IMG/VR virus record: IMGVR_UViG_3300008259_000147
Coordinates: 1-64,000 of that record
Reading direction: 5' to 3' (one strand)
Length of the DNA: 64,000 nt
From: a virus
Shown here: in pieces, positions 120-61,827 of the stretch
How positions within the stretch are numbered: the stretch's first letter is position 1
Layout: the number at the start of each line of letters is the position of its first letter
The notes under the pieces: model-generated
What the model saw: the letters and a program-made list of their open reading frames with translations, nothing else
Told to the model about the DNA's origin: nothing
The model's database searches: none
Translations under genes and position numbers: made by a program

Positions 120-491
120 TTAATTGTAATGACCATTATTATACCACCTTCTTAGTGTAAGATATTCGCAGCTGTCTAGACCTAATCCTAATGTGTCTAC
201 ACCTAAACTATCTAATGCTACAGGAGGCATTGTTTTTTGGATAAATACTTTCTTATTAAATGTACCACTAATGCAAGTAGCATTTAATTGATCATAATTA
301 TAGAAGTTCCCATTTGGTGAACCTGTGCCATGACAACCACTCCCTGTATTGCAGTGAGCAGTAATAATAGGTTTGATATCTCTCTGATAAGAAATACTAG
401 TAGGTACACAAGCAGGTGCTGCTTTCTCTACCTCAGGTGCATCACTCTTGCAGGCTGCAAAGAATAATGCAATAATTAATAGCTTTTTCAT
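120..491 (-). CDS. c-type cytochrome-like lipoprotein
   Basis: Lipoprotein signal MKKLLIIALFFAA-C; 'ISYQRDIKPIITAHCNTGSGCH' (CX5CH); distal 'MPP' and C-terminal 'L..W...G', as in Bacteroidota mono-haem cytochrome c lipoproteins. Confidence 0.7.
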   Translation of the reverse strand: MKKLLIIALFFAACKSDAPEVEKAAPACVPTSISYQRDIKPIITAHCNTGSGCHGTGSPNGNFYNYDQLNATCISGTFNKKVFIQKTMPPVALDSLGVDTLGLGLDSCEYLTLRRWYNNGHYN

Positions 492-8000: not shown

Positions 8001-8852
8001 TCTTAATCCAATAAATAAAGTTTTTCTTTCAGTGACTAGTTTATCTACAAACAAATGCATTAATTCTTCTAATGCTATAGAAGTATTTACCTTACCTCTA
8101 ACTAAAAACACTTGGTTCTTAATTGTAACAGCATTAACTGTAACACCATTAGATATTAAAACTTTAGGATTAGCTCTAAGAATTTCTTGCATTTCATCTT
8201 CAGTAACCCAATTTACTTTAGCACCCTTAAATTTCTTTAATAGAGGGGCTATTGTATTTTGAACAACTAATTGATCAACTATATTTTTAACTTGCGCAGT
8301 TTCCATTGGAACATCAGGAGTTAAAATTTCTGTAGATCTTGATGGCTTATTGTGCAATGCTATTTTATACCTCTGTTCTCCATTAATAACCCTAGATTTA
8401 AAAGGTGTAGCTTCTAAATTAGGGTAACTCATGCTTAAACCAATTTTAAATTTACTTACCTCTTCCGAAGTAAGTTCAATAGACTGAGTAAAAGAAGCAC
8501 CAACATTGTTATCAGAAGGAATTAAATACTTATTTGTTAATTGTAGTGGAGTTAATGTAGAATCATTAGTGTAATCTGTTTGATACATTCTATTTTCAGG
8601 GTAATAGATTCCATGCAAAGCATCTATTTCACTAAACGTATTAGCAGAAAACACTACATTGTCATCAGTCATTGCAGCATAATCTACAATAGGTCTAGCA
8701 ATTCCAAATTGTTCTTTTAATCTATTCTTGAGTCTATTATCTGTTTCTTTTAAAGTATTCATATCCAATACTTTACCAGAAGCATCAATGGCTTTATCTT
8801 TTTCAAATTGATTAACTAGTGCTCTTCTAGCACCTACGCTACATATTTTCAT
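2049..8852 (-). CDS. Giant putative ejection protein 3 (2267 aa) with a degenerate zincin and a PD-(D/E)xK nuclease domain
   Basis: EELMH (~8055-8070); GTFVH...PEIT...GRLDYL...GDYKT...QIGVY (~6810-7340); C-terminal hydrophobic segment FIWTIVFILCRGLV; lies next to the RNAP gene. Confidence 0.75.
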   Translation of the reverse strand: MKICSVGARRALVNQFEKDKAIDASGKVLDMNTLKETDNRLKNRLKEQFGIARPIVDYAAMTDDNVVFSANTFSEIDALHGIYYPENRMYQTDYTNDSTLTPLQLTNKYLIPSDNNVGASFTQSIELTSEEVSKFKIGLSMSYPNLEATPFKSRVINGEQRYKIALHNKPSRSTEILTPDVPMETAQVKNIVDQLVVQNTIAPLLKKFKGAKVNWVTEDEMQEILRANPKVLISNGVTVNAVTIKNQVFLVRGKVNTSIALEELMHLFVDKLVTERKTLFIGLRNQALKEYPGLAVQIESEYTNERGFNQQARDIELVTRAIKDSYMRVQEEKETSASSFATSVKQFIKWLKNLLNDTFGFQLDAMDQLPLNSTIGEVAVFLDDTNIVLSGAEVIEPRFNLISKSDDYNEEEAVEKQAKEEGKTTKEKKLENNANEIKRLENLLKKLKKDPAKANIVTTVEILLKNIRDYRQLIEDDVKTVSVTKFVGSPLHDEKLAKRFDKFANFGTFVHDFLYHITIDSLEFGYTPLQILNNNPDYFHDFYEKNLDMLELPGLNEKGSKMLPKIREEVLSDHLVNIVGIINDPFTKGDIVIPEITIFEYDSMGRAIVGRLDYLIIRKDGTASIGDYKTTRAKFPMKNYSHLAIFKERYTTALEDGVHPAFERFSGRSKASIFLSQIGVYERLLKRIGITTKDNKIINIIYSPNAKFQNMDDMWVYEDMHVAAVNIEGDQGLSLDLDEYGNPLPELSPMYKQVLRALATSIEVPGETTDEELEAKVKENINYISSIPQDTLKIISDNLKENLDKQLSQINSEIANLKKNNADQTKINEAEARKRLFLEARDWFSRQTIEDGVLKELPKELILKGLYDKVREIISNLRKDSEEVAASSTGKEKVINILGDRYYQLEDMKNFLEFFKTLLINNSDVTEDSDIMSEINKSIDSALIGQGVYVEMAREQFVKVLLSTPKITAEEMMAQMELLFEPEMKKLERIIAGDATVLQNFTFYLGGKVRKMFGRKAKTQVITGDMKEEAQKKLDKIKYFLNNKKFDRNFVDLYIDNTFTNPESDFYIGSTIKLGMSGDELKASLGNSELAISALAYYASNATQNASIRFFDRMAKLKFDSFVRKYSSKYGSYQALNTAISEMVSETDFEKGESRNFMSFLTPYDYKSREIQDQYDYEIRKLYEDRSTIKKSDGSEDFKKAQLKEINEKLKKLKLEQAKWEVDNLETETIPELYLLKVSLPVEIQDRIDAINIKIQTIKSRNSNEDWLIDDSDMIEIKDLESEISLLKKQAILENPEIAAVYEKMHMYYDFHVNEDKFEYARRQVLKTYSEDSVEYKLFLERNSDLVADPTWLEDLRALEEEKRELYGSSDPVLDDLYEQRRKMMNKYRFNSVFSSKPIFNPLYMSDEDYEQFSQIEEAIDEIYSSATGVKPSEAARKRINQIDKELDSMRQTQNRPEYMKELNERMSEIIRINKQIGETTDVAEKAKLQAQLNIKDIAFQKWYNRNNTSKYTLGTIVKNGKVATAPRRFNTMAMPTNPSLLIRIPNSKYRTRSLKPEAYNPNYTPSLKRKRYGPGNYAMPKGHRYNADIGRFEMTSDAMWVNPRYMRMMQDKELAEFYNKYVMDEFYNKQVGMSANKLEFFFPGVTQHAVDTIAQDGLEGAIREGREWVNKHILANSSELEKATNEYGISGKQRVRFSHNYRLDTSLGTKDGINAILKWGLEYEIYDAMEEANLLLSPSVDFLKSSMNLIKDEVVRKQYQKVIDMLEFERNKFVYGQYYDGIDSKNQLRLRKTLKQITGLISYSRLAFDPAMQLGNLVSGNVQMFLAAQGEKYGMGTYKDWAWAKKQMYSPDGFMWNIIADWGKIDDVSMATKISRYFNTSMNSQEKLLDLAGQSKQKRLLKRALAIGDLAYVIQDKGEVEISTTTLLKNLIAHKYNVYETNPDGSLKLDASNNPMFKKDSNGDLLQISAYDALIDNGTMIPGIRSDVAMTIDDLESIRSKTRMEYLQHQGNYAKQNQTQFESGMIGTLAFFFRKYLVPFAENRFKGSFGMGDPKNWNSGQVQRGWWTAVADIFFKLGYGQGFLSLLPEIIAEKTGKLETNEFYRIKAAQARREIMNGFIWTIVFILCRGLVYDDDDKDKVKKLSWAEGQALRVLAKVSNESRSMLYAPFIGKGEDFIKNFSTFTSVFNEGIQIKDGFENLVYLIAYEGFDSEYAFEQGYYKKKTFRFPKGTPKVLAQFYKLTGFENIQDFIDPVPALKTMYQKKK

Positions 8853-8863
8853 TTTAGTTTATT

Positions 8864-11800
8864 TTAACAGAATGGGTCATTATCTTCTGACAATTGTTCA
8901 CTTTGTGTTTGTTTATTAGCAGCTTCTAAAGCATATAACAAAGGAGTGCTATAGTTGTAGTTAGACAAATCTACTAAATATCCACCTTCTCCACCTCTAA
9001 TTCCTGGAATAATTGGTTGCCAAACAAGCTTTATACCTGGAATTCTAGTCATAGCATTATATATAGCACCTGTTTCAATAGGTCTATCATTTGATATATT
9101 AAATATTTGATTTATAACCCTATTTGCAGCATGCTTATCTGTTTTTCTAAAAGCTGCTAAAGCCTTAATTCCTTTTTCAATTTCAGATTGTGGTACTTTG
9201 TCTTCACCTATTTTAACAATATATCTTGGAATTAAATCAAGTTCTAAAGCAGCTTCATATTTAATGTAATCAGCTTCTTCTTTTGTAAAAGCTACTTCAT
9301 CTTTTCCTGCATATATCAGAGCTGTACTTTTACTTCCTTGAGTAAGATTAGTAATGTTATAACCACTGAAATACATAGGCATAGCTTTACCATGATTCTT
9401 TATATGTTTTTGTATGGTATAGTGAACTAAAGGAGCAAAATATTTAAGTTCTAACTCAATTGTATCAGCTATAACTTCATCTTCTGGAAATGATTGATTT
9501 CTAAGTTTTTCAGTTTCCTCTTTTATTGCTTCATATTTTTTAAGTAACTCTTCTTTTGCAAATCCTTTTTCATTTTCACTTAATGTAGGAGTTTTAGATT
9601 GTAACTCTACTTCTCTCAATGCAACATTAGTTTCTAATAATCTTTGATTATATTGCATATTTTCAAATATTTTAACAAGTTGCTCTTGAGAAATATTTTG
9701 AAATGGTGTAAGAGAATTGAATTTAGTTAAAACTTTTTGAGAAGATATAAGTGATTTTTTTTCTAGAAATGCACTTTTAGCTTGATTTTCTAAAGATCTA
9801 TTTAGTGCATTAGCCAACAGTACTTTCATGTTTGTTTGTACTTTAGTACCTTCTGTTCTAGGTTTAATTCCTGCACGAACAAATCCAGCAATACTCCTAG
9901 CGTCTGTAGCTAGATCTACACCATATTTAGAACCAACTAGCTCTTTAATTAAATCATTTAATCTAGAGTTAAGAATAATTGAATCTGCCTCATCTTTAGG
10001 AATAACTACATCATCAATTCCCATATCTAACAATTGATCAGCATTATATGGTCTTTTATTTATTTGTTCTAACTGAAAAGTTAAGTCTATAAGCAATTGT
10101 CTACCCTCCTCACTTTCGTTTAATAATGCAAAAAAACCACCTTTATTTTTTATATCATTTAATATCAATTTTCTAGTATAGTAGTTATCTAATTTTTTTC
10201 TAATTTGAATCATATCGTATAAAATATCTTCAATACGAGGTAAAAGATTAATTTGCTCATCAATTTTTTCTAAGAAAATTTCATGTTTACGCTTGCTTGG
10301 AAGTCTATCTTGCGAATATAAATCATAAAGAATTGTATTAAGTGTTGTCGCATTTCCTAATAAAGCTTTTTTTCTTATATCTTCTACAAAAGGGTTAACA
10401 CTCACTTCTTTTAGTTTTCCTGATTCTATACGTTTAATCCTATCATCTGTATTTTTTGCTAAATCTTTTAGATAGTCATTTATCGCATCTTGTAAACCTT
10501 TTTTAGTATTTTTTTGTAGTTTTAATAATTCTTCAATATTATCATTTTGTATTTCATGTAATAATACAGCATCTTTAAATTTAGAATTACCTGTATAAAA
10601 ATATGTAAGATTGGCCCAAGCAGAAGGAGATAGATGAAAATGTGATCCTTGTCCATAACTTGTATGAAATGTATCATTAAATCTTAGTGATATTTTATTA
10701 TGCTTGACAGAACCCGTACCTCCATTAACTCCTAATATTCTAGCAACTCTCATTCTTTCTTGAGGAGGTAATGCCATTATCTGGTCCTCAGTCATATTAT
10801 TTACATCATACCCTATTTCTTCTAGTTCTTCCTGAATATCATCAGCTGGATCATAAGAATTTTTATTTCTAGGATTAATTGAAAATGTTTGATCAATTCT
10901 ATAATCTAAATAATTTTGTTCATTTGCAAAACCCAATGCATAATTAAATTCTAAGAAGTTATGAATTTCATTAACTAACTCTTCTGCTGTTATTGATCTT
11001 TTATTTGGATTTTCTTTTGCTATTGCATTTTTTATAGCTTCAATCATAGCAGACTCTTCTTTCTTAAGACCATCTACTTTAAGAGTTTCTGTTAAAGAAA
11101 TAGGAATACCTTTTATTTTGTTTTCCAATCTTGTTAACTCAGCATCATATTGTTCATTAGAAATTTCTTTTTTTAAATTTTTTTTAACTAATTCCACTTT
11201 TTGATCTATAGTTTCAGGAGAATCTTTTCTACCATACTTTTCAAGTATTAATGGTAATACTTTAAGAGTTGGTGTAATTTTTTCATAGCCGTTATTAGAG
11301 ATTAAGTTTTTTAATTGACTATCTGTTAATTTTTTTGTAAGTGCTGGCACAGCACTTTTTTTATAATCAAAACTCTCAATTAAATCCTCATCTAGTTTTA
11401 TTTCATCAATAGTTAAAAAACTATCAATTGTTTTTGATAAGTATCTAGTTCTTTTTTTATACCTATCATTTATTAACTTATCTATAAATTTTCTATCATC
11501 TTTTACTTCTTCTAGTTTTCTACTATGATTATCAACCATTTCTGGAAAAGTAGTTAATAACCAATTAAGCAGCTCACCTCCAAAATCAAAAGCAGTAGTT
11601 TCAATATAGTGCTCTCTCCAACTTTCCGCCATAGCTTTTTCAATCAACCCTTCTATTGCTTTTCTAGTTAGTCTACCTCTATTCCTCTCAAAATAATCTC
11701 CACCCGCTTGACTATACATACTAACATTAGGAAAAATATTATAAAGCTGTTCATCATCAAATCTTCTCAAAGCAGATTCTAATAATTTTTTACTATTTCT

Positions 11801-14800
11801 AACATTGAAACTAAAAACCACCTCATCTATATCAGTAATTTTATTTGCAAGAGTACCATATTGCTTAAGATCATCAAATTTTATATCTTCAAACGATGCT
11901 TCTGTTATTTTATCTGCAAAATAAATATAGTCATGTATTTTTGCATACTCCTTCATGGTCATTAAATCTGACATATCTGAAGTTAAAATTTTCATTGCAG
12001 CCACTTCAAATGGATCTTGCGTACTAGCAAAATATCCTGTAAAAGTTTTTAAAACTTTATTAATCCACTCAACAAATGCTTTAAGGAAAGAATAATCTTC
12101 AGGAGCTCCATTTTTTTCTTCTATTTTTTTAATTGCTTCTCCAATTAATTGACCAATAGATTCTTCAGTAAGAGCATCAATAATTGATGCATTATCAGAC
12201 ATTACAGACTCATACTCTTCTCCATATTGATTTTTCAATAGTACTTCTAATCTTTCACCTGTTTTTGCAGATTTCCACAACAAATCTTTTAATGGAGAAT
12301 TTGTCTTTAATAATCTATACCACCAGTGAGCTGCCTCCTCTGGCATCTTATTCCATGCGGCAGGTCTTTTATTAATGTCATCAATAATATCTACAGTACC
12401 TTTTACAAAGTTAGCAGCTGCCAATGCACCTTGGACAACAGAACCATCTTGTCTTAAAAACTCAGGAACTAATCTTTGTTGCACTCCTACAGTTTCTAAG
12501 AATTGAGAAACTGTATTTAAAGTGTTTATGTGAAACTCTATTGTATTATCGTTTTCACTATCTAATCCGAATAACTTTTCTTCTGAAGATCCAGGATCTT
12601 CTTTTCTAACCTCACCACTAATTGTTTCTGGTGCATAAGGTATTAACCAATACTCGCTAATTGATTTAGAGTTTAACCAAGTATTGAATGTAGTATCCTT
12701 AGTTGCTTCTTCATAAGAACTAAATCCTAATTTATTTGCAAACTCATTTAATTGTTGTTCATTCATAGACTTACCTTCCATGAATGCTTTACCATTTCTA
12801 GCAGAGTATCTTACACCTACAGAACTTATATTTAAGATTTGATTACCAGAAACATATCTAGCACCAGATATTTGAGTAAGTAGAGTTTTAGAATCTACTC
12901 TTAAGTTTGTAGTTCCTTGAACTACTTTAACATCACTAGGTAATGATTGAACAATATTTGAACTAGGTGCATTTACATTTGATGTACTATCTACAAGCTT
13001 TTTAATTTCTGTAGCAACATCATTTCTAAATGCATTAGGTGATATTCTATCAGCACCTTGTCTATCTACCACTACATACTTTGCTGTAGTACCTCTTAAT
13101 AAGAATTGGAATTCATCTGTACTCTTATATGAATCAAATAGATTTGCAAAGAACTCAGTTGTAAAAGGTTTACCATCTAATTCTGTAAGTAGGAATACTT
13201 GGTCCCCATTAAAGTTGTTTATCTGATATAATGGGAAAGAGTAATTACCATCTCTAGTTTGATAGATACCCTGAGGTAATAATAATCTATTTACCACATC
13301 TCTGTTTGTATCTGTGATGCCAGATAGGTCAAACATCAATTCATTATTACTATCTGCTTTCCAAAGTTCAAATCTTGTATTACTTCCCTTAAGACCTCTT
13401 TTAGTATTTATCCCAGCATTTACAGGAAGTATTTTTCTAATACCTTTTGGATTAGTTCTTACAGTGTAAATAAAGTCTTTGTTTTTTGGTAGAATGGTAT
13501 CTACAATACTCTTAAGTAATGTTAAAGAAATATCAGAATATTTACCTGGCAAGTACTTATCACTACCTGGATAAAAACTTAATCTAAGTGCTCCATTACC
13601 AATAGATTGTTTAGTTAATGTTGAAACAAGTTTTCTTAGAATAGAGTTTGTATAAGTAGCAGCTGTGTCTTTAGATATAGAAGGTAATGAATATATCTCT
13701 TTAAACACATCATTTAAGCCTTTTATGTATTTAGCAGATGTCATACCTTTTTGAGTATCCAACTTATACAACTTGTCTTGGATTATATCCAATCTCTTAC
13801 TCATGTGAATGAATAAATCAGGTGCAATTATCTTTAAGAATCCTTCATTTCTAGATATACCACCATCTTTTACAATACCATGAACAGCAACATTTACTGC
13901 CATTTTATAAACAGACTCATCAGAATCAGTTAGTAATTGATAGAAATCATTAATAACTCTATTTTGATTTTCTGATGATAATTTACCACCTAGTAATGAT
14001 GTAATTACTTTTGTCTTTCCTTTACCTGAAACTAATGCAGGCTTTATTGTCAAAGACTTTAGAAATTCATTCTTAGGAAACTTGCGCTTTAAAATATTTA
14101 AATCCTTTTCAATTTTATTATTTTGCCAATAAGAAATACTTGTGGCATCATGAATTGCTTTAACAAATACATCTTCTTGAGACATGTTGTTTTCATCAAT
14201 ATTGTCAATCCTTGATTGAACATATGCATTTAATGATGATAATCCAAGAATTGATTTCAACTCAAGAACTACATCTTCTATGTTTACTGATTTATCGTAT
14301 CTAAATAATGAAGTAAATGCTTTGAACAAATTAGTTTCATCTAACAACACTTCTTTTGATCTAGTTGACATTTCAGTAATACCATCCTTTGCAAGTTTTT
14401 CTAAGTAAGGATGTTGTTTAAAGATATCAGGTGCATTTTCAAAAATCTCATTGTTCTCTATAAAATCAACTGCATCTTTAATTCCAGATAATGTTCTAAA
14501 TGAAGGTCTTAATTTTTTAATTACATGAGCAAGCTTTCCAATCTTAAATGAAATAGCATTTCCAACTTTTAAAAACTCATTGTAAAATGACATTAATACA
14601 ATACTACCAAGCTCACCTGCAATAATTTCTCCTTTATTATTCTTAATAGTAATGTTAAAATTATCTAAAGTATTTCCTTCTACACCTGATTCAACATCAT
14701 TAAACTCTATCGTAATATTACTATGATCAATTTCAAATTTATTGATTTTGTTTTTAGATGGTTTTAATACTCCAAACTTTTCAAATGCTGTTTTATTAGC

Positions 14801-17800
14801 ATTTACTAATGATAGAGTTTTGTTATTTAAGAATACAGAGAATCCCATTCTAAATGAAATACTTCTAGAATAACTAGGGTCATCATTCAAGCTATATTCT
14901 TTAATGGCAGATGCAATTAAATCTACAGAGTTAATTAATCTAGCAAACTGAGAAGGATATCCATAAATGTATAACGCACCTACAACACCTGCATTAATTT
15001 TAGAAATTTTTAATGGTGCTAAACTTTGATGCTTAGCGTCATCTAATGAAACATCTGTTGCACCTCCCATCTTTTGAACAGACTCATCTATAGGCTTATT
15101 AGTTTCAATAGCCTTACCATTATGTACAAACTTAAATGTAAAAGCTTTTGAGAGTTTTACATTTGATGATCCAATTAAAGCTGCTGATTTTACTTGATTT
15201 GCATTAGCTGAAACTGAATCTAGTGTTCCATTATTAACAGATCTAATTCGACCTACTGTTTGAAACTGGTATGGATCAGATTTATCAATTCCTTTAAAAT
15301 CTGAAATAGAATCAACTATTTTTCTATCTGCTTTGTATTCATTAATTGCTTTTTCACCATCTGCATTTTTTATGTAAGTTTCATATACATCAGGGTTTCC
15401 TAATAACTCCATCTTCTCTAGTAAGATTTCATTATGCAATCTTGAGTGAACAGGATTACCTTCTTTTTTAGTAAATGCCTCAAGTGCATCAGGTGTAGAT
15501 GGTAGATTATAGTTGTTTATTACATTAACAACTGCAATCAATCTATCCATCAACTTAAGGATATTACCTAAACTCTTGTTAGATGATACAACATTAGCAC
15601 CCATTAACTGACCTAAAGACTCTAGGCCTGTTCCTTTCTTTTTGTTCTTATCATTTGTAGTTTGAATAGATAATGTTACACTCTTTCCTTTTGATAATTC
15701 TTTAAATACATCAGGAGATAATAAGTTTAACACATAGTCTTCAGTACCAGAAAAGAATTCGCGGACTTCATCTCCAAATAATCCAACAGCATTTGCTAAT
15801 GATCTAGTTTTAAATTCTTGATCAGAATTAATTCTGTCTTGCTCGCTATCTACAAGATCTGCAAAAACAGGATCAGTTGCCATGTAATGTAAATACTCAA
15901 GAAACTCAGCATTCTTTTTACTAAGTCCTAGTTTAGTATATCCACTATAGTCCCCATACTTAACTAACTTACCTAATGTATTTCTATAATAATCATATGT
16001 CTCTGCATACAATGCATCAATATCTAAGTCAGATCCAGCCCAGAAGTGAACTTGAGAAGGTACTATGATAGAGTTACCATAAGTAGCATCTATATAGTCA
16101 ACTACTTTAGCTCTAACCATAGATCTTTTATCAGCTGTTGGAATACGAGCTGCTAAGAAATCAGTGTAAAGTTTTTCAAAAAATTCTACTTCTTCTTTTG
16201 TAGAAGCTAATTCACGAGGAATAATTACTTCTACTACATAATCTATTAGCTTACCATTCTCATCATATGTTTCTTTTACAGTAGGGTATCTTCTTTTATA
16301 TCCTGCATATCGTTCAGGATTTGCATCTAATTCTTTTCTAGGAACAGGCTTATCATTTTCATCTACAATTAATTGATAACCTGCCACTGAAACATGGTAG
16401 AACTTTTTACCTGCTACTTTAGGACCAAATATTGAATTGTTAAATAAACTGAAAAAATAAAACATTGGTTGTTTACCTAAAATAGATAAATTCAAATTAA
16501 ATTTATTTTTATTGTTGGTATCCAGTGAGTAAAACTTTAATAAGTTTTCTCCAGCACCTTGTTTCATTAACCCAGCTTGAATTGCTTTAGTAACTAAAGT
16601 CTTAGGGTCATCAGTTTTAAATACTCTTTCTAATAACTGTAATCTTGATTTTACAATTTCTAATTGCAAATCAAGTATCTTTTTAGCACCTGGAAACTTC
16701 TTATGATCTAACTGAGCAGGTAATATCAGTTTCTTCTGAATACTATCTGTTGTTTTTTTAGAAATACCTGCAGTAGAAACTTGCTCATATACTAAATCAT
16801 TTGGTATAGCATGAGCATTATATTCTAAGTTAATGTAACCATCTTTATTAATTACAGGTTTAACACTATCATTAAATGTCATCTCACCATGCCCTTCTAG
16901 AATATTATTTTCTAATAGGTTCATGTTAATGATTAATGGTTGTACAGTTCCTTTTTTAGATACAGTGTCATCAAATGCTACATCTACTCTAAAGTATTCA
17001 AGAGCATTTAATAAGTGATGATTAAAAGCTCTACCTAATTTTGGTTTAAAATAGCTATGGATTTCTTTAATGATTTCTCTATGTCTAGCTAATGCATCAT
17101 CAGTGTATGTAGGATTGTCCATCTCTAATGCATCTAATTCCTCATATAATTCTGCAACACGATCTGGATCTGATACAAAGCTATTATCACTTCTATTAAT
17201 GTAATGCTCTGAATCTTTATAATAAAAGTAAGGGTGTCCCACGGCTGGTTTATCAGAACCTAAAAATATACCATTGTCATTAAGCTGTATAATTTCATCA
17301 GTACTTAATGTAGTGTATCTTAGCTTTTTAAGCATTGCTTCTAATTCAGGCGAAAGAATACCATCTTTTCTAAACTTTTTAATTCTTCTATCTATTCCAC
17401 TCCAACCTTGACCATCTGCTATTTTCATTTCTCTATCTCCACCCATTTCTTCATCAGTGGTAAGAGGTATTCCTGGATTATTAGAATCTAAAAATGCAGA
17501 AAGACCTTTGAATACTGCAAATACACTATTGTCATTGGCTTCTAGAATATTAATATTTCTATAGTTGTTACCTGCAATTACACCTGACTTTTGACGCTTA
17601 AAGAAGTTTATAACATTGTCAACACCAACAGCTAAATCCCCATCAAAAAGTTGGTTCATTTCTAAAGAGTTAAACCAAAAGTTATATCCAAAGTCTTCTA
17701 TAAAAAGATCTTTTAAAGGAGCTGTTTTATCTTGACTGTAATAAAATTTTTCTTCTATTTCTCCACTCTCTTTTCTTTCAACTACCTTATCATATTTAGC

Positions 17801-20800: not shown

Positions 20801-23800
20801 TTCTTCAGTTGTCAATGCTAATCTGAATACAGCATGAAATGCTTCATGATATATAACTCCACTTATAGGAAGAAGTTTGTTTAATGTGATTACATTATCT
20901 TCAATATAACCTAAAACAAAAGCAGACTCAACTTTATCAGCAATTATAGTAGGATCAATCTTAACAGATGATCCTAACATTCTTTTTACATCATCAATTT
21001 GTTTTTGAATTTCTTTACTTGCAACAAATGATAAACCATTTAAAGAAGTAACTAAACTATTAGCTCTATCAGATCTATCAGGTCTAATGCCTATCTTTCT
21101 AATAGAAGCTGGTTTTTTTTCTTCAGTCTTAACAGGAGTAGCTACTGTAGTTGTTTTAACTGTTGCAGCAGTTCCTAATGAAGGTTTTGCTGGTGTAATA
21201 ATAAGCTCTCTTAAACTATTCTCTAAGTTATGCTCAAACACTTTATAGTTTAATAAAGGATTTGTAGATTTTTGTCTAGATGCTAATTTAAATTCTAAAG
21301 TATTAAGATTTCTAAATAACAAATACTTAATGTCCTTAGGATTTACTAAAGTTTTATTTTCTGGGTTTTTATCAGCCTTCTTAGATTCTTTTTCTATAAG
21401 GTTGTTTAAACTTGTATTTAGATTACTAATAGTGTTTTTAAATTCATTTTCAATCTCTGCTAGTACTTTCTTAGCAGTAGGAGTTAACAAATGTTTATTG
21501 TCTTCTATTTTAGCCTGAAGAATGTTTCCAAATCTCAACATGTTTTCTACAGAAGAAGAATATTCTTTAGGATTAATATTCAACTCTCTGTAAAGAATGT
21601 TTAATTGCTTTTGTATATCATAGTAATCAAAACTAAATTCAATAGACAAATTAGCTTTGTTAAGATTTTCTGCATATGCATAATCACCCGATGCTCTAAA
21701 TCTAACACCAAACACAGGCTCATCATTCCAAATTCTTAAGAAATCAATATTTGCAGAAATACCTTTGTATGCATTAAAACCCCATCCTCTATTATTAAAA
21801 GTTCTAATCAACTGATTTAAAGCATCCGCAGTTTCTTCTGAAAACTCTGGCCTAAAAGTTTGCAATGCACCTAATGTAGATAAAAAGTTTACAACCTCTG
21901 ATACTTCTGTAACAGGAGCAGCTCTATACATTGGCTTTAGAATCCACTCATTATTCTTAGTCCTTAATAAATAAAAATCATTGTATTTAGAGTTAACTGT
22001 ATTCTTTAAAAGATCTGCAATTTTAGATTTAGATAAATTTTCCTTTTCAAATACTTTCTCATAAGAAAGTTCTTCATTGTTTTCATCAATGATTGTGTAT
22101 CCTTGTTCAATTGAAGGTTCAAAAATAAATCCTAGTAGTGCATCCTTTTTAACAATACCAATGATGTTTTCTTCTCTTATGCTACTAGGTATAGCTTTCC
22201 CAGCAGACATTTGAGCTATTCTTACTGGTACTAAAGAATTAGTTGCCACTAAGTTTTCTTTAAACTTATCTAAAGTCTGAACAGGTTTGTATAAACCATT
22301 TTGTTCTTTTACAAAATCTGTAGAAGAAAATACATTAGATATGTCAAAGTATTTAGAAAACATTTGATGAGGAATTTGTAAAACAGTATCTTCATCCATC
22401 ATTTCTAAGATTTCAGATTTCATTTCTTTTATCTTAGCTACAATGTTTTTTATATTTTCTATTTCTGCATCTGTAGGCATTTCATAAGTATATGCTTGAG
22501 CAGGGTTTTCATCAGGACCTTTTTGTACGTATTCTTCATATTTTTTAATACGTGTTGCTTCTTTGAAAATCTTTAAATCTTCATTGTTTGTCCAATCAAT
22601 AAATCTAATTGTGCCATCAGGATAAACAAATCCTAAAGTATCTAATGACATTAGGTAATCCCAGTTCTGATCATCCTTAGAAGATATGATTATATCTAAA
22701 CCAGCTCTTGGCATTAGGTTAGTTACAACAGGAGCTGCATTAGGGTTTGAAGCTAAGTAACTAAATTGAGTAGGTGTTAATCCAGTTTCAAAATCAATAG
22801 GATAACCTTGCTCATTTAATAAAGCAACTCTAGCTCTATTTGCTAAAATTCTTCTTCTATCAGCAATGATTTTAATTTGATTTGCTAGACCTACACCTAA
22901 TGATAAACTATCTGATATTTTTTGATTACCTGTTCTATTATCTGAAGGAGTTTCTGATTGGATGCCTTGTTCATAAATTCTAACATCTTCAAACCCAACT
23001 CCATTTTTAGCAAGGTTTGCATTCAATCTATATTGACTTCCTGAAGAGTTTGTAATTTCTAAATTATCTTGACCATACACAGGAGTAATATAATCAGTTG
23101 GCTCTACAGTGTATAATGTTAATTCACTTTCATTTTCTCCAGTATACTCAGGGCTATAAACAAAGTATTGATCATTCTTGAATACAAGAAGTTTTATCTG
23201 ACCATCTTTCTTTCTAACATATTGCATTTCTCCAAGTGAAGGAATGGCTCTAACATTAATTAGTTTTGATGCACTTTCTTCTATTTCAGATAACTCAGCT
23301 TTCTTCTGATCAATTAATGCTCTTAATGAAGTAGCAGAAGTATTCTTTACTTTAGATATAGCTTCTAAAAACTTATTGTATGCATTAATCTTAGCAGAGT
23401 TATCATACAATGCATCTTTATTTATAACATCTTCAAACTCTGCAAACAAATCATTTAATGTAGCATCAGATGCTTTTGTAAGCTTTGTAAAAATGTTATT
23501 TAATTTCTGAGCAGTTGTTAAAGGTTTTTTTGTTTCTTCTTTCTTAGCTGTAGTACCTGTACCTAAAAATCCTCTCTCTTGCCACAATCTGTCATCTCTT
23601 TCTTGTTCTCTTAAGTCTTCTAGTCTTTCTCTTTTAGGACCAGCTGCAGAAAGATCTGTCAATGCTGCTTCTTTAAGTTCATTATTTACTTTTGATATTT
23701 CGCCTGCTGTAGTAAGTTTTTCTCCTTTTACTTCAGGCTTACCTTCTGCAGCTAGTTCTGAAAAATATTTATTGGTAAAAATAACTTTAGATTGATCTAT

Positions 23801-24592
23801 TTCTGCTATTATTTTATCAATGCTAGATTTCCAAGATTGTAAAATTTCAGGATTATCTCCTCTTTCAGTAGTTCTTTTTATAAAAGTTTCTTTACTTGTA
23901 GTAATTATTTTATCAAAATCATTTAAATTTTCTTTTAAAAATAACATATCGGAAACTACAAGCATTTTCCCACTTCTTTTAGATTCAGCAACAGCCTCTT
24001 TCCAAACTTCTCTCATAACAGCTTCAAATTCTGCTTTGTTTGAATCATTTCTCCATTCATTTAATCCTTTACTGTTTTGTTTATTTGCAGGTAAACCTAA
24101 TTTTTTTGCAACTTTGGGTTTAAAATCAGTATCAAAATCTAATACTCCAGTAGGATTTTGTTCTTTAAAAGTAGTTTTTCCTAATCCTGGATGTCCCCAA
24201 ATAATTTTATCAGTAGCTGACAGTTTAATTTCCCCACTTAAATCAGCTTCATCTGCTGCTACAGGTTCTGTAAGGATTGATTCAATACCTTTTAATAACT
24301 CTTTAAAGTCTGTAGATGTTTCATTTAATTTATCCTTTACTAAATCTGAGATTTTAATAGGCAATCCTTCTGTAACAATACCATTAGTTTCAGTGGCTGA
24401 TTCTACATTTAAAGCATTGTTATATACTATACCCATAAACCAAATAGCATGGACCTTTGCCTCATCTTCAATAGGCATTGCCATAATACTTTTAATAGAT
24501 TCCCTATAGTATCTATATTTTCCTCTATCATAGTTGATTGACTTTATGAATAATGTTTTAAGATTTTCGTAAGGAATTCTACAAATTTTCAT
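8864..24592 (-). CDS. Virion RNA polymerase polyprotein (5242 aa), crAss-like two-barrel RNAP with accessory domains
   Basis: 'ARIPTADK...NSIIVP...AGSDLDIDALY' with DxDxD at 16016-16030 and 'ADGQG' at ~17405-17420, matching the phi14:2 gp66-type vRNAP pattern. Also a P-loop (GHPGLGKT) and HEAFH and EEAAH zincin-like motifs. Confidence 0.88.
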   Translation of the reverse strand: MKICRIPYENLKTLFIKSINYDRGKYRYYRESIKSIMAMPIEDEAKVHAIWFMGIVYNNALNVESATETNGIVTEGLPIKISDLVKDKLNETSTDFKELLKGIESILTEPVAADEADLSGEIKLSATDKIIWGHPGLGKTTFKEQNPTGVLDFDTDFKPKVAKKLGLPANKQNSKGLNEWRNDSNKAEFEAVMREVWKEAVAESKRSGKMLVVSDMLFLKENLNDFDKIITTSKETFIKRTTERGDNPEILQSWKSSIDKIIAEIDQSKVIFTNKYFSELAAEGKPEVKGEKLTTAGEISKVNNELKEAALTDLSAAGPKRERLEDLREQERDDRLWQERGFLGTGTTAKKEETKKPLTTAQKLNNIFTKLTKASDATLNDLFAEFEDVINKDALYDNSAKINAYNKFLEAISKVKNTSATSLRALIDQKKAELSEIEESASKLINVRAIPSLGEMQYVRKKDGQIKLLVFKNDQYFVYSPEYTGENESELTLYTVEPTDYITPVYGQDNLEITNSSGSQYRLNANLAKNGVGFEDVRIYEQGIQSETPSDNRTGNQKISDSLSLGVGLANQIKIIADRRRILANRARVALLNEQGYPIDFETGLTPTQFSYLASNPNAAPVVTNLMPRAGLDIIISSKDDQNWDYLMSLDTLGFVYPDGTIRFIDWTNNEDLKIFKEATRIKKYEEYVQKGPDENPAQAYTYEMPTDAEIENIKNIVAKIKEMKSEILEMMDEDTVLQIPHQMFSKYFDISNVFSSTDFVKEQNGLYKPVQTLDKFKENLVATNSLVPVRIAQMSAGKAIPSSIREENIIGIVKKDALLGFIFEPSIEQGYTIIDENNEELSYEKVFEKENLSKSKIADLLKNTVNSKYNDFYLLRTKNNEWILKPMYRAAPVTEVSEVVNFLSTLGALQTFRPEFSEETADALNQLIRTFNNRGWGFNAYKGISANIDFLRIWNDEPVFGVRFRASGDYAYAENLNKANLSIEFSFDYYDIQKQLNILYRELNINPKEYSSSVENMLRFGNILQAKIEDNKHLLTPTAKKVLAEIENEFKNTISNLNTSLNNLIEKESKKADKNPENKTLVNPKDIKYLLFRNLNTLEFKLASRQKSTNPLLNYKVFEHNLENSLRELIITPAKPSLGTAATVKTTTVATPVKTEEKKPASIRKIGIRPDRSDRANSLVTSLNGLSFVASKEIQKQIDDVKRMLGSSVKIDPTIIADKVESAFVLGYIEDNVITLNKLLPISGVIYHEAFHAVFRLALTTEERLRYLEAAKTILGSYKTDSIGKYLQVGSEKVYLDEFRKKRNFAGVEDNIIVDYIYEEYLADGFRDYKLNKSEPKNALIKMLYSLLDGFINLFKSRGYRDAKNSINDLYGKIDKGEYADVIGDKYAAPRAYALSSIPTSLIKVGDNVQMDYKQVDNYTTDQLVDRITREMLKRSGDIVKGNQESFNQVYDEITRDLINYFNINNFITDDNPNSAEIIATYEPMFRNMRFMMGAAHRTDVNEDFILDNLTDDLDLNGYSFLDIDGSNAFSYKTYEEVKQLVQKSFGSVGVIKDKTSEEDQTERDESDENEDDSYFDRSDEDEMGENFEDGGILTYKPYEGSIEFQKLIKYIKYTFVDERLGVAFDKMVNSRDVINQIRKITYNTPKENIIEAIYTHIQYLKSNIDNFNESGLASELGYIREDMIQTIDDYNTLKAVYETLDEQASLHNFLPTRSLGMPFYNMFVNVFYRANKNISAISINTNYEEVSTDERENFDRSPVKNSFRVNSLIQRYNTKVVLDKLRTNLEIGLESFKLESNLPVYAKLKSLVQNYNYVIPTNQETFDYTVNRLYTITSYANLNIPRNVIEFAVAASVKENYKEKATFVDPILAQNKKFLNAGNYFNIQDFIDKYNTILNSLNKTDAIKTSAVNSFMSEYESIVPFAIKYDPSLVSNTILNQDNKPINQSIPYVPSVQILNEVRWKGLAATLLKYYGDTKFFEDNPTLAAIINNTTFNPNDKSQFAIDQDTARIFFENFDISVAGGMFQEFGKGNRRQSTYKALGDKGYALSVLGLFANRFSVTGNYGQEIIMFEKPITQLEATSTQFNMTSLYDDYTNKKTRARKVKSKLKQIIKQEYNRIANEWSTRDAVKIRYENYNCRTTKDRNVTSSDLTLRAYNFNRLKGFFERDYEVSYAGEENDSLSNIHSILKNAAIAGTAFEDILSQTYYDANNNPYDYTVDEVLSELLFDYAEDQIAELAQYFKSIDIQLDDIPSGFRVNGEFTSLAKYDKVVERKESGEIEEKFYYSQDKTAPLKDLFIEDFGYNFWFNSLEMNQLFDGDLAVGVDNVINFFKRQKSGVIAGNNYRNINILEANDNSVFAVFKGLSAFLDSNNPGIPLTTDEEMGGDREMKIADGQGWSGIDRRIKKFRKDGILSPELEAMLKKLRYTTLSTDEIIQLNDNGIFLGSDKPAVGHPYFYYKDSEHYINRSDNSFVSDPDRVAELYEELDALEMDNPTYTDDALARHREIIKEIHSYFKPKLGRAFNHHLLNALEYFRVDVAFDDTVSKKGTVQPLIINMNLLENNILEGHGEMTFNDSVKPVINKDGYINLEYNAHAIPNDLVYEQVSTAGISKKTTDSIQKKLILPAQLDHKKFPGAKKILDLQLEIVKSRLQLLERVFKTDDPKTLVTKAIQAGLMKQGAGENLLKFYSLDTNNKNKFNLNLSILGKQPMFYFFSLFNNSIFGPKVAGKKFYHVSVAGYQLIVDENDKPVPRKELDANPERYAGYKRRYPTVKETYDENGKLIDYVVEVIIPRELASTKEEVEFFEKLYTDFLAARIPTADKRSMVRAKVVDYIDATYGNSIIVPSQVHFWAGSDLDIDALYAETYDYYRNTLGKLVKYGDYSGYTKLGLSKKNAEFLEYLHYMATDPVFADLVDSEQDRINSDQEFKTRSLANAVGLFGDEVREFFSGTEDYVLNLLSPDVFKELSKGKSVTLSIQTTNDKNKKKGTGLESLGQLMGANVVSSNKSLGNILKLMDRLIAVVNVINNYNLPSTPDALEAFTKKEGNPVHSRLHNEILLEKMELLGNPDVYETYIKNADGEKAINEYKADRKIVDSISDFKGIDKSDPYQFQTVGRIRSVNNGTLDSVSANANQVKSAALIGSSNVKLSKAFTFKFVHNGKAIETNKPIDESVQKMGGATDVSLDDAKHQSLAPLKISKINAGVVGALYIYGYPSQFARLINSVDLIASAIKEYSLNDDPSYSRSISFRMGFSVFLNNKTLSLVNANKTAFEKFGVLKPSKNKINKFEIDHSNITIEFNDVESGVEGNTLDNFNITIKNNKGEIIAGELGSIVLMSFYNEFLKVGNAISFKIGKLAHVIKKLRPSFRTLSGIKDAVDFIENNEIFENAPDIFKQHPYLEKLAKDGITEMSTRSKEVLLDETNLFKAFTSLFRYDKSVNIEDVVLELKSILGLSSLNAYVQSRIDNIDENNMSQEDVFVKAIHDATSISYWQNNKIEKDLNILKRKFPKNEFLKSLTIKPALVSGKGKTKVITSLLGGKLSSENQNRVINDFYQLLTDSDESVYKMAVNVAVHGIVKDGGISRNEGFLKIIAPDLFIHMSKRLDIIQDKLYKLDTQKGMTSAKYIKGLNDVFKEIYSLPSISKDTAATYTNSILRKLVSTLTKQSIGNGALRLSFYPGSDKYLPGKYSDISLTLLKSIVDTILPKNKDFIYTVRTNPKGIRKILPVNAGINTKRGLKGSNTRFELWKADSNNELMFDLSGITDTNRDVVNRLLLPQGIYQTRDGNYSFPLYQINNFNGDQVFLLTELDGKPFTTEFFANLFDSYKSTDEFQFLLRGTTAKYVVVDRQGADRISPNAFRNDVATEIKKLVDSTSNVNAPSSNIVQSLPSDVKVVQGTTNLRVDSKTLLTQISGARYVSGNQILNISSVGVRYSARNGKAFMEGKSMNEQQLNEFANKLGFSSYEEATKDTTFNTWLNSKSISEYWLIPYAPETISGEVRKEDPGSSEEKLFGLDSENDNTIEFHINTLNTVSQFLETVGVQQRLVPEFLRQDGSVVQGALAAANFVKGTVDIIDDINKRPAAWNKMPEEAAHWWYRLLKTNSPLKDLLWKSAKTGERLEVLLKNQYGEEYESVMSDNASIIDALTEESIGQLIGEAIKKIEEKNGAPEDYSFLKAFVEWINKVLKTFTGYFASTQDPFEVAAMKILTSDMSDLMTMKEYAKIHDYIYFADKITEASFEDIKFDDLKQYGTLANKITDIDEVVFSFNVRNSKKLLESALRRFDDEQLYNIFPNVSMYSQAGGDYFERNRGRLTRKAIEGLIEKAMAESWREHYIETTAFDFGGELLNWLLTTFPEMVDNHSRKLEEVKDDRKFIDKLINDRYKKRTRYLSKTIDSFLTIDEIKLDEDLIESFDYKKSAVPALTKKLTDSQLKNLISNNGYEKITPTLKVLPLILEKYGRKDSPETIDQKVELVKKNLKKEISNEQYDAELTRLENKIKGIPISLTETLKVDGLKKEESAMIEAIKNAIAKENPNKRSITAEELVNEIHNFLEFNYALGFANEQNYLDYRIDQTFSINPRNKNSYDPADDIQEELEEIGYDVNNMTEDQIMALPPQERMRVARILGVNGGTGSVKHNKISLRFNDTFHTSYGQGSHFHLSPSAWANLTYFYTGNSKFKDAVLLHEIQNDNIEELLKLQKNTKKGLQDAINDYLKDLAKNTDDRIKRIESGKLKEVSVNPFVEDIRKKALLGNATTLNTILYDLYSQDRLPSKRKHEIFLEKIDEQINLLPRIEDILYDMIQIRKKLDNYYTRKLILNDIKNKGGFFALLNESEEGRQLLIDLTFQLEQINKRPYNADQLLDMGIDDVVIPKDEADSIILNSRLNDLIKELVGSKYGVDLATDARSIAGFVRAGIKPRTEGTKVQTNMKVLLANALNRSLENQAKSAFLEKKSLISSQKVLTKFNSLTPFQNISQEQLVKIFENMQYNQRLLETNVALREVELQSKTPTLSENEKGFAKEELLKKYEAIKEETEKLRNQSFPEDEVIADTIELELKYFAPLVHYTIQKHIKNHGKAMPMYFSGYNITNLTQGSKSTALIYAGKDEVAFTKEEADYIKYEAALELDLIPRYIVKIGEDKVPQSEIEKGIKALAAFRKTDKHAANRVINQIFNISNDRPIETGAIYNAMTRIPGIKLVWQPIIPGIRGGEGGYLVDLSNYNYSTPLLYALEAANKQTQSEQLSEDNDPFC

Positions 24593-24603
24593 AATTGTGT
24601 AAT

Positions 24604-27600
24604 TTATCTTTTACAGATGAAGTCTTTAAATAAAGAATCATCATCATATGGATTTTGTTTAGTTTTTTGTTTCTTAGATGCTTTTAAATCTTTTGGATTT
24701 AACTGAGCCATATCAATAGCTTTGTCTATATCAGGTGCTGTAAATAGATTAGCAGCAGGAAGTAGCTCTTCCATTTTAACAGCCACTTCTTTTCTATGCT
24801 TTTCTATTTGATCTTTTGCATTATCAACAGCTTCTACTATTCCTGTCTTTTTTGTTTTTGAAACACCTCTAGTACCTCTAGTACCTTGTTTTGGTCCTTT
24901 GGTTGTAGATTTTCCAGAGCCATCAGCAGTTTTATCTTTTGCTTTGCTAGACTTTGTTGCTTTTCGTTTTGGTTTGGTAATGATTTGTTCTCCATATTTT
25001 CTATTAATAGGATTTATAATGTGCTTACTAATATAGTCAATTGCATTAACAACATATACACTTTGTTCTATTTTTTGAAGTTTTTCATAAGTGTCTTGAG
25101 CCCATGCTGATAACTTCTTAATTTCTTCTTCTGATAATTGATTTCTTGTTTTATTGTTAAAGTACTTGTCATAGATATCTGCAACATCATCAGGCATTGC
25201 ATCAATCATATCATTAACTATATTCTTAGTAATCTGACCTTTAGATCTAAGTTTAACTCTAACTGTCTCTGCAGGAGTAATGCTTTCTAAAACTTTATTT
25301 GCTTCATCTAGTGTTTCTTGTGTAACATTTACACCATTTTGAATTCTAGAAATTCTTGCAGTATTTACTAAAAAAGCAACTTTACTATCAGGATTTCTTT
25401 TAGCTTCTTCAATTGTCAAAAATACAGTATTTCCATCTTGATCTGTATATGTTATGCCTAAGAAACTACCTTTCTCATCTTCTTGTATTGTGTATTCTCT
25501 ACCATCAATTCGAAGAGTACTTTCTGAAATATACTCAACTGTATGTCTATTAATGGTTTGGCTATTAGGATTAACTCCTGTAATAGTTTGTTCTTCTTCA
25601 GCTAATCCATCTTCAATAAGTTCAAGACCAACAATATCATCTAATATCAAATCATTAGACTTATCAACCATTTCAAGTCGCCCTGTTTGTTCATTTGTTT
25701 CCCATATAAATGATGTAGACCCATAAGAATTATCCTCACCTATTTCAATGATGTCTTCTGTACTATCTAACTGAATGTAAAAACCTTTTTCATTACGCTG
25801 TAATGTTCCTTTTCTACCTTGGTATATTACTTGCTTACCTACTAGATTCTTAAGTTTCTTTACTTCATTTGCAATTACTTGATGTTCTTCAGTTGATTCA
25901 GGAGTTTCTGTTGTACCAGCTTCTTTATCATATAGAGCTTGTTCATAGTTCTCTATAAAGAAAAACAAATCATCGGTACTCATATCAAATAGTTTGAAAC
26001 CTTCTTTGTCTTTAAAAAAGTTTTCAATTTGTTCATCAGGAATTAAATGACTAATTTGCTTATTACCATCTGCATCTTTATAAACTCTTTGAAGCTCTCC
26101 TAAAAAATTACCATCATCATCTTGCTTTGCTTCGTAATGATCTGATAAGAATTCAACAGCTTCTTCTTCAGTCATTAATCTAATATTAACAGGAGCTGAT
26201 GCAAGCATATTAAATGCTTCTTTTTGTAAATTTAAAAAGGCTGCTTCTGCTTCTTTCTTTTTTACTTCAGATTGTTCTACTTGTTCATCATTGAAATCAT
26301 TGATCATTTTATTAATTCTTTCTAAATGATCATATAACTTTTTACTAGTTTCAATAGATGTAAAAGGTGAACGAGCTATCTTTAATAACTCATCCATGTC
26401 ATTAGGATTATTGTTTACATATCTTTCAAAGATCCCACTCATCTTTGCAAGCTCAGTGTACTTATCATGCATCAATCTTGCAAATGCACCAACCCTGGCA
26501 TCTTCAAAAGAATGCATTAGTTTCAATGAGTTCTTAGGATCTGCTAGAAGATTTACAGAATACATATATTCTTTATAGTCTCTGTTCAATCTTTGATAAT
26601 CATTGATGTCTTGAAGAATATTAGTTATCTCTGTTTTAGAAACTACAGTTTTTATATTATTTTGTTTGTTCTTAATTGTATAATATTCAGCAAGAATACC
26701 TGATAAGTTATCTTGTTCTTCTGCTGTTAAAGTTGTAAAATCTAAAGGAAGAGAAACCTCTTGAGTTTCCTCTTGATTATTTTCTTCATTTATTGAAGTT
26801 TGCTCTTCTATTTTATAAGCTGCTGCATTCCATTTCTTTAGTACTTCTAATTCTTTTTTCTTTAACTCAATTAGATTAAGAGTCTCCTTTGTTTTAACTC
26901 CTTCTATTTCTTCTAATGTTTTTATTTCATTATTTAATATGCTAACTTGTACTTCCCCTAATTGATAATCCGTAATAGTATTGAAAGTACTTGTTGCAGC
27001 ATTACCTATTGATTTATTTTTTTCAGAAATATTTCTAGCAATTTCACCAGCTCTTGTCAGACTATTTTCTGCTTTAGCTTCATTAAATGCTATATTATGA
27101 ATAGCATCTTGTAAAGCAGCTACAGAAAAACTATATCTTTGTTTTGCATGAGGATCAGTTCCAACATTTTCTATTGTAAAATACTGACCAAATTGATTAT
27201 TATATTTGTCATATAATTCTGAATATCTTTCTAATTTTCCAGTTAGATCTGACATAAATTCTGCAGGAGAACTTTTTCCAAATTCTTCTACATCAATACC
27301 AGTAGCTTCTTTAAATTCTTTAGGATCATATTCAGTTCCATATGCATTTAAAAAAGTTTTGAATGCATCAAAGGTTCCTGTTCTCTTTGCATAAAGAGCT
27401 TGAGTTATAATTGCAGAAGAGCTGTTGTTAAAGTATTCATATTTTAAACCACTCTTTGCAGCATCTGTCATTGCAGAATTAAAAGATAATTGAGACTTAA
27501 TATTTCTAATAGGCTCTTCTAATACTGAAGAAGGTTTTGAACCTAACACATTCAAGCTTTCTAACATCTTATTTAGTTGCTCTCTGTGCTCTTTAGATTC

Positions 27601-50498: not shown

Positions 50499-50883
50499 TT
50501 TGATTATCTACTTTTTCAAATTCTTTTTTGACTTTTTCACTGCCTATAAATTTATAGAATTCTTCACACAGAAACCCCATCAACCAAGCACATGTTTCTT
50601 CATCTGTAATATCTCTATCTTCTGCTATTCTTTTTGCAGCATGAAATAACTCATGACCTATTGTGTTATGATTAAGAAACTTAGCATCTATCATTACAAT
50701 GTATAAGCCACCATCTACAGTAATAGTAATACCTTCTGCTTCTTCAGCTGCAGTACCAGGAACTAATGTTCCCTTTGCATATTTCTTTTGTAAATACTTT
50801 TCTGACTTTCCCATCTCATTTGTTATTACAAATAAGATAGAACAATTGAATGTATTTACTCTTACTTTTTTAGTAATTCTCAT
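50491..50883 (-). CDS. Small zincin-like metalloprotein (130 aa)
   Basis: TIGHELFH...DEETCAWL (HExxH plus downstream Glu). Confidence 0.65.
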   Translation of the reverse strand: MRITKKVRVNTFNCSILFVITNEMGKSEKYLQKKYAKGTLVPGTAAEEAEGITITVDGGLYIVMIDAKFLNHNTIGHELFHAAKRIAEDRDITDEETCAWLMGFLCEEFYKFIGSEKVKKEFEKVDNQNG

Positions 50884-53773: not shown

Positions 53774-53774
53774 A

Positions 53775-53783
53775 TATAATTTA
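53775..53783 (-). promoter_or_regulatory. Putative late-promoter motif TAAATTATA, 1 nt before ATG
   Basis: 1-mismatch variant of the TATATTATA motif, heading the tail operon. Confidence 0.45.
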
Positions 53784-53815
53784 CAAAATTTTTTTGATTT
53801 TTAAAAGATAAATTT

Positions 53816-55120: not shown

Positions 55121-55134
55121 CTTTTATATTTTAG

Positions 55135-55191
55135 GGTGAACCCCCTTATTGCTAAGGGGATGTCACCTGCTCAGGGCTACCAACAACCTGA
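55135..55191 (-). other. GC-rich two-hairpin intergenic element
   Basis: Minus strand: TCAGG-N11-CCTGA, then GGTGA..CCCCTTA-GCAA-TAAGGGG..TCACC (GNRA tetraloop); no U-tract. Confidence 0.6.
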
Positions 55192-55194
55192 ATA

Positions 55195-61811: not shown

Positions 61812-61827
61812 TTTATCTTTTATTTAT

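Follow-up and report, generated by a model that had tools for sequence, protein, structure and literature searches.

Paired terminal cysteines at the breaks of a giant RNA-polymerase cargo module suggest head-to-tail tethering in a freshwater crAss-like phage

Introduction

Cysteine is suppressed in some of the proteins that phages eject into their hosts. In the Schitoviridae (N4 gp50, DEV gp71-gp73) it makes up 0.00075% of the ejection proteins, against 0.865% proteome-wide (PMC11445570). In cyanophage A4, cryo-electron microscopy resolved a disulfide between gp27 Cys1715 and gp26 Cys5 beside a docked C-terminal helix, a bond that was not presented as a general rule (PMC12002296). In virions of the crAss-like phage crAss001, disulfides join subunits to one another, and passage along the tail requires the cargo to unfold in part (PMC10172136). 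Mass spectrometry of phi14:2 and crAss001 virions detected a polymerase together with its two neighbours, and the polymerase transcribes early genes after injection, transcription assays being the further line of evidence (10.1101/2020.03.07.982082, PMC10172136). The crAss-type polymerase carries a DFDxD motif, and in certain phages all three module proteins are fused into one polyprotein (10.1101/2020.03.07.982082). Here we describe three consecutive genes for giant proteins, A, B and C, from a crAss-like phage of fresh water, which probably constitute its virion-packaged RNA-polymerase module. They lie on a 64,000-nucleotide stretch of viral DNA, referred to as the window (positions 1 to 64,000 of IMG/VR record IMGVR_UViG_3300008259_000147). 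An earlier note on this DNA had proposed that cysteines at the protein ends chain the three products in gene order.

Results

Cysteine content of A, B and C

All three genes are on the minus strand: A at 24604-29271 (1555 residues), B at 8864-24592 (5242 residues) and C at 2049-8852 (2267 residues), being the first, middle and last links of the proposed chain. Minus-strand spacers of 11 nucleotides separate A from B (24593-24603) and B from C (8853-8863). An exact count finds six cysteines in the 9,064 residues of A, B and C (0.066%), bearing out the by-eye figure of about six in roughly 9,000; the other open reading frames (ORFs) of the window average 0.73%, and those from 45255 to 63950 contain 0.8-3.4%. 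The sole cysteine of A is residue 1553 (codon 24613-24615), at position -3 in the tail ...DFICKR. B contains Cys4 (codon 24581-24583), Cys2138 (18179-18181) and Cys5242, its last residue (8867-8869), while C contains Cys4 in the sequence MKIC (8841-8843) and Cys2129 (2466-2468). All of these codon coordinates were verified. The earlier note was likewise correct in placing four of the six at junction termini (A -3, B 4, B last, C 4), and in stating that A lacks an N-terminal and C a C-terminal cysteine. The chance of at least four of six cysteines falling within the 20 junction-facing terminal positions is 2.6e-10.

The two internal cysteines occur only in the closest relatives. In more distant ones, B2138 is replaced by valine, serine, alanine or threonine and C2129 by phenylalanine or leucine; both are, as judged from these alignments, recent and lineage-specific.

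Comparison with described ejection proteins

Inspection of the A-4L sequences reveals a sole cysteine at -3 of gp27 (...DNPCQF) and a sole cysteine at position 5 of gp26. As in the window, the genes are adjacent and encode large ejection proteins, with a lone cysteine at the C-terminal end of one product and a lone cysteine at position 3-5 of the next; even the gp27 tail resembles the ...DNDPFC of window B. In contrast to the chain of three to four giants considered here, A4 has a pentameric ring in which just two proteins are joined by one link, and no RNA polymerase. A blastp comparison of A4 gp26 and gp27 with A, B and C gave nothing better than E 0.036. The likeness is hence one of design rather than family, and A4, the nearest experimental case, is the only system in which the disulfide has been seen.

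A further comparison is offered by crAss001 gp47/gp50/gp49 and phi14:2 gp65-gp66-gp67 (GenBank gp078-gp076), which form a homologous module with the same terminal-cysteine pattern, a feature that the published descriptions do not mention. These modules are broken at other places, and window B, from a freshwater phage, is far larger, with its 5242 residues including a P-loop module and a 1250-residue extension. Like the Schitoviridae, the window has giant proteins, including a putative virion RNA polymerase, that are nearly free of cysteine (0.066% for the module; internal content 0.004-0.022% for its families and more distant representatives). The N4-like virion RNA polymerase is a single polypeptide without terminal cysteines, whereas the window module retains one at each end facing an inter-protein junction. 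The low frequency is thus shared with the Schitoviridae, but conserved cysteines are not wholly absent, the terminal ones being invariant. Suppression of cysteine in ejected proteins is known from N4-like phages; its retention at every inter-protein end is the addition made here. Fused crAss polyproteins have the same domain content, with peptide bonds in place of the proposed cysteine links and no cysteine pair at the fusion point. In the literature the fused forms are viewed as being cleaved into parts (10.1101/2020.03.07.982082), while the pattern in the window suggests that separate parts are re-joined. Our literature searches found no paper on terminal cysteines in crassvirus cargo.

Conservation of the terminal cysteines

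The earlier note had suggested a survey of terminal cysteines in crAss-like orthologues as a check, and they proved to be conserved in all three families as well as in crAss001, phi14:2 and others. In the A family a C-terminal cysteine is present in 17/17 members and an N-terminal one in 0/17. Homologues as distant as 22% identity have it 1-3 residues from the C-terminus, as their sole cysteine in 15 of 16 cases, and C1553 forms an invariant column across 14 aligned sequences. The B family has a C-terminal cysteine in 16/16 and an N-terminal one in 12/16, with both C4 and C5242 invariant in an 11-sequence homologue alignment that extends to 22% identity. For C the polarity is reversed (N-terminal 11/11, C-terminal 0/11): homologues down to 46% identity all have a cysteine at position 4 or 5, and in 8/10 there is no other. 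Internal cysteine content across the three families is 0.004-0.012%.

To extend the census, the B core was searched against 1.84 billion representative proteins, yielding 99 giants with the RNA-polymerase core (at least 2000 residues, at most 50% mutual identity). A cysteine is found within the last 10 residues of 95 and within the first 6 residues of 71, with an internal content of 0.022% and a median of 0 per protein. The residues flanking the terminal cysteine vary among relatives while the cysteine itself stays (MSC, MAC, MNC, MKVC, MASSC). In the window, B and C both begin with ATGAAAAT[T/A]TGTAG (encoding MKIC; 24578-24592 and 8838-8852), each after its 11-nucleotide spacer. Given that relatives start with MSC, MNC, MKVC or MASSC, these shared start nucleotides are specific to the lineage.

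Other phages follow the same rule. In crAss001 the sole cysteine of gp47 is at -3, gp50 has Cys5 and a second cysteine at -9, and the sole cysteine of gp49 is at position 5. All 4 cysteines in the 5,398 residues of the phi14:2 module are terminal. Rudgehvirus jaberico, cr118_1 and Flavobacterium phage Fpv1 also conform, as does crAssphage ZA once a mis-annotated start is shifted to MSC. In the latter (CrAssphage ZA, MK238400), the start of the RNA-polymerase subunit (L011 11668-11733) is apparently annotated 21 codons too early, the first ATG giving MSCGNIKL; the start of P0036 is over-extended in the same manner. Separately, gp45-like cargo proteins of crAssphage ZA (L011 774-3161, 795 residues) and Rudgehvirus (g49, L007 4822-7095, 757 residues) have a lone cysteine at -2 and -11, respectively, and in both cases the next protein has no N-terminal cysteine. 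The window equivalents of these proteins have no such C-terminal cysteine.

Cysteine pairs track breaks in the chain

A relative that is 42-48% identical (G001) has a series of four proteins rather than three, with the ends A' ...LNCNM / B1 MSC...KKLC / B2 MANC...NPFCL / C' MKVC. It contains 6 cysteines in 8,837 residues, all at its three junctions (P = 9e-16). The extra protein, B2, has 655 residues (L003 8637-10604). We considered whether B1 and B2 arose by a simple split of window B and rejected this, as the B1 tail and B2 are without similarity to B 3990-5242; on the available sequences, an additional module is the better description of B2. The argument from fusion and splitting therefore rests on fused forms of A and B and on a shifted breakpoint near the zincin region.

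Five A-B fusions were identified (P0063, P0074, P0182, P0123, P0125), in which the first 900-1000 residues match the A profile (E 2e-155 to 4e-26) and the polymerase core follows downstream. P0063, P0074, P0123 and P0125 each have a single cysteine; it is C-terminal, so that the fusion point has none. P0039 and P0042-44 had seemed from their N-terminal regions to be further fusions; BLAST gave no support for this and they were not used. In crAss001 the first protein ends with the zincin region (gp47 2048-2293), which in the window lies ~1,250 residues into the second protein, and despite this shift each lineage carries a cysteine pair exactly at its own break. Furthermore, crAss001 encodes gp47 on one strand and gp50 and gp49 on the other, and gp47 is not adjacent to gp50. 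As the rule is kept in this arrangement, a DNA motif at the junction or translational coupling is excluded.

Together, the four-protein relative, the fusions, the shifted zincin breakpoint and the crAss001 gene arrangement indicate that the cysteine pair belongs to the break in the chain and not to a particular domain or to the DNA. On comparative grounds the rule is one cysteine 0-4 residues from each C-terminus and one at position 3-5 of each N-terminus, wherever the chain breaks. The four-protein relative, the A-B fusions without a cysteine at the fusion point, the shifted breakpoint and the census of 99 representatives are new here.

A proposed head-to-tail tether

The pattern suggests, without proving, that disulfides tie A, B and C into a thread of 9,064 residues. 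We assign a probability of about 0.6 to the reading in which head-to-tail disulfide tethers join the virion RNA-polymerase module into one polarity-preserving thread. The C-terminal cysteine of A would bond with Cys4 of B, and the C-terminal cysteine of B with Cys4 of C, and this bond is probably a disulfide that would form once the particle is assembled. Internal cysteines have been lost, as they have from other proteins that must leave the capsid unfolded via the tail, and their loss would also avert wrong pairings. With the cysteines so near the termini, only a few residues away, the joined chain would be nearly unbranched, with a single N-to-C polarity, and could act as a single polyprotein. 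A, B and C may then be packaged together in equal numbers and exit the particle one after another, with reduction in the host cytoplasm separating them. The differing tails and heads (FICKR with MKIC-RIPYE; DNDPFC with MKIC-SVG) suggest that cognate docking may set the order. In this respect, the first ~125 residues of B (24218-24592, minus strand, starting MKIC-RIPYENL) are a candidate docking site for the A tail: residues 4-128 are 49-71% identical in relatives whose core is 43-63% identical. A complex prediction for A 1460-1555 with B 1-130, using the window sequences only, gave a score of 0.03, a value that speaks neither for nor against the contact.

The core idea of the earlier note, pairing of each C-terminal cysteine with the N-terminal cysteine of the next protein in chain order, is on sequence evidence strongly supported: the pairs are invariant, occur at breaks, are absent at fusions and do not depend on gene adjacency. 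The disulfide or metal clasp itself, by contrast, is a step that we infer, as are the consequences that the note drew from it, namely set stoichiometry, order of ejection through the tail and release on reduction in the cytoplasm.

Several points weigh against a disulfide-linked chain. Four of the 99 giant representatives violate the C-terminal rule, and in crAss001 gp50 the C-terminal cysteine sits 9 residues from the end. The cytoplasm in which the particles are assembled is reducing. No thiol oxidase was identified, and a search for thioredoxin-family members in the 78.6-kb source record, which is only 63% complete, found none. Sequence alone cannot fix the topology, as B could be cyclised with A and C paired, or the links could be homotypic. 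The A4 precedent is an analogy, since gp26 and gp27 have no sequence similarity to A, B and C. The published phi14:2 polymerase work used dithiothreitol (DTT) or tris(2-carboxyethyl)phosphine (TCEP) throughout (10.1101/2020.03.07.982082), and the crAss001 paper is silent on cargo cysteines (PMC10172136).

That topological freedom is what would allow the terminal cysteines to bond partners other than chain neighbours, whether in homotypic dimers (A-A, C-C), in a cyclised B accompanied by an A-C pair, or as anchors to capsid, portal or tail. Tail and portal-vertex proteins of crAss001 do have many inter-subunit disulfides, and the C-terminal cysteines of the 795-residue crAssphage ZA protein (-2) and of Rudgehvirus g49 (-11) are unpaired. 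We nevertheless consider such bonding unlikely. It leaves unexplained why the first protein is always without an N-terminal and the last without a C-terminal cysteine, and why a new break adds both cysteines (B1/B2 of the four-protein relative) while a fusion removes both; the A4 bond, moreover, joins the C-terminus of the upstream protein to the N-terminus of the downstream one.

The same neighbours could be joined head to tail through a shared metal site rather than a disulfide, with zinc or iron held by the two thiolates and a nearby aspartate, glutamate or histidine. Such a site could form in a reducing cytoplasm and fits all of the comparative evidence equally well, and Asp, Glu and Asn abound in the C-terminal tails immediately ahead of the cysteine (...DDDSLFKDFIC, ...SEDNDPFC), offering possible extra ligands. 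It appears quite unlikely in view of the single conserved thiol per terminus, with no conserved histidine or second cysteine nearby, and of the variable spacing from the ends (3-5; -1 to -9), which better suits a flexible disulfide. In addition, the sole structurally resolved case of the signature is a disulfide (PMC12002296).

It is highly improbable that the cysteines are recognition or processing signals, i.e. the remnant of a polyprotein cleavage site, a zincin 'cysteine switch' or a packaging tag. Cleavage of the fused forms was proposed by the phi14:2 authors, who noted a zincin protease in the module (10.1101/2020.03.07.982082), and B has an invariant HEAFH. However, the fused forms have no cysteine at the fusion point, so the cysteine is not part of a retained cleavage motif; a cysteine switch would need one cysteine, not one per break; and the zincin resides in different chain members in different lineages with the cysteine pattern unchanged. 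Chance, an annotation artefact or a nucleotide junction motif (TGT within a coupling or regulatory signal) is effectively refuted: the shared ATGAAAAT[T/A]TGTAG start of the two downstream window genes stands against P values of ~3e-10 (window) and 9e-16 (four-protein relative), cysteines that stay constant while flanking residues change, and a pair that persists in crAss001 gp47 and gp50 on opposite strands and non-adjacent.

If head-to-tail disulfide tethering is correct, it bears on the packaging and delivery by crassviruses of polymerase-related cargo amounting to ~0.7-1 MDa. It would explain the co-packaging of separate gene products in fixed proportion, the lack of internal cysteine in the cargo, the serial passage of cargo proteins along a narrow tail and the splitting or fusion of the module at sites that differ between lineages. 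What was one structural observation in A4 would become a rule across the order, and the terminal-cysteine signature would provide a simple marker for injected cargo proteins in uncultured phages. More tentatively, crassviruses, together with at least Fipvunavirus and cyanophage A4, might share a 'virtual polyprotein', in which cysteine-ended cargo proteins are wagons in a disulfide-linked train of up to ~9,000 residues. Modules could be freely broken, fused or inserted (e.g. the 655-residue B2), with the train leaving as one thread and being split by reduction in the host.

Identity of the module and domains of B

The assignment of A, B and C to a virion-packaged RNA-polymerase module, which we regard as probable, derives from B. 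A B profile matches the Rudgehvirus 'RNAP catalytic subunit' (E 2e-20), crAss001 gp50 (E 2e-11) and, more weakly, the virion RNA polymerase of phi14:2, which has been crystallised (E 2e-5), and tblastn also linked B to the crAss-type RNA polymerase, identifying it as a homologue of this family. The invariant GSDLDID motif (B 2853-2859; 16016-16036, minus strand) fits the catalytic DxDxD signature by which virion RNA polymerases of the crAss type are marked. The equally invariant zincin motif HEAFH is found at B 1249-1253 (20834-20848, minus strand), in a region homologous to crAss001 gp47 2048-2293 (profile E 9e-12), giving the module its zincin domain. B is homologous to crAss001 gp47/gp50, which are packaged in the virion, and to the phi14:2 virion RNA polymerase; on this basis A, B and C can be inferred to be ejection proteins.

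Between the N-terminal domain and the core of B is a P-loop kinase-like module (residues ~100-310, with GHPGLGKTT at B133; 23663-24295, minus strand), for which Pfam gave AAA_18/CPT matches below threshold. Copies that are 54-73% identical occur at varied positions in the giant phage proteins P0038-P0044 and are far more similar than their flanks, so that in sequence terms it looks like a mobile cargo domain. A C-terminal extension of ~1250 residues (3990-5242; 8867-12625, minus strand) ends in the acidic tail ...SEDNDPFC. It is confined to the closest relatives, P0032 among them, with core homology stopping near residue 3990 in most. No similarity was detectable between this extension and the B1 tail and B2 of the four-protein relative, yet both present the same acidic ...DN(D)PFC tail to C. 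Pfam returned nothing meaningful for the extension or for B2. A 229-residue ORF antisense within B (23820-24509, plus strand) is most likely spurious, because B is conserved.

A and C are without an annotated family. The A profile had no match among the proteins of crAss001, phi14:2, Rudgehvirus and cr118_1; in the same four phages, the only match to the C profile was the last protein of cr118_1. For C, Pfam yielded only sub-threshold matches, to EAD9 and to PD-(D/E)XK, the latter a weak nuclease signal at residues 497-638. PHROGs contained nothing for A, B or C, and sequence and profile searches of the PDB found no match, B included.

Genomic setting and neighbouring genes

The window is a single long minus-strand operon of a crAss-like phage, derived from a 78.6-kb viral contig. 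Crassvirus tail ring proteins 1 (50870-51982) and 2 (51982-52656) were recognised by Pfam CrAss_Ring_1 and CrAss_Ring_2, both above cut-off. Downstream of the ring genes are a 1747-residue cysteine-rich protein and five large cysteine-poor ORFs, of which two carry a lysozyme or amidase domain, followed by A, B and C; the module thus comes after the tail ring, muzzle and cargo genes, as in other crassviruses. A megablast search of the region against phages and a single-protein scan of viral contigs gave no match. DNA near-identical to window 6000-12000 is present in lake-water and freshwater metagenome runs from many studies, as well as in 'fungus metagenome' runs, which points to an environmental rather than a gut phage. 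Among the sequencing runs listed for this DNA, none is of RNA.

Downstream of the cargo genes, a 123-residue cysteine-rich ORF (120-491, minus strand) has a signal peptide and a lipobox-like MKKLLIIALFFAAC, and is a probable lipoprotein. The only two cysteines of a 922-residue ORF (35524-38292), at residues 183 and 186, make up a CxxC motif (PCIDCFDNYNPSPQAQNLNWYYKA). This motif is kept in the four-protein relative (185 and 188), within an otherwise cysteine-free cargo-like protein, and could be a redox-active or metal-binding site; that it makes or breaks the terminal links is pure speculation. A 1663-residue ORF with a lysozyme domain (40267-45258) has four cysteines, arranged as two copies of a G-x-CP-x-G...x12...C motif (52/65 and 300/313). 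Its homologue in the four-protein relative is fused with the amidase protein into 2230 residues and has one copy of the motif (35/48).

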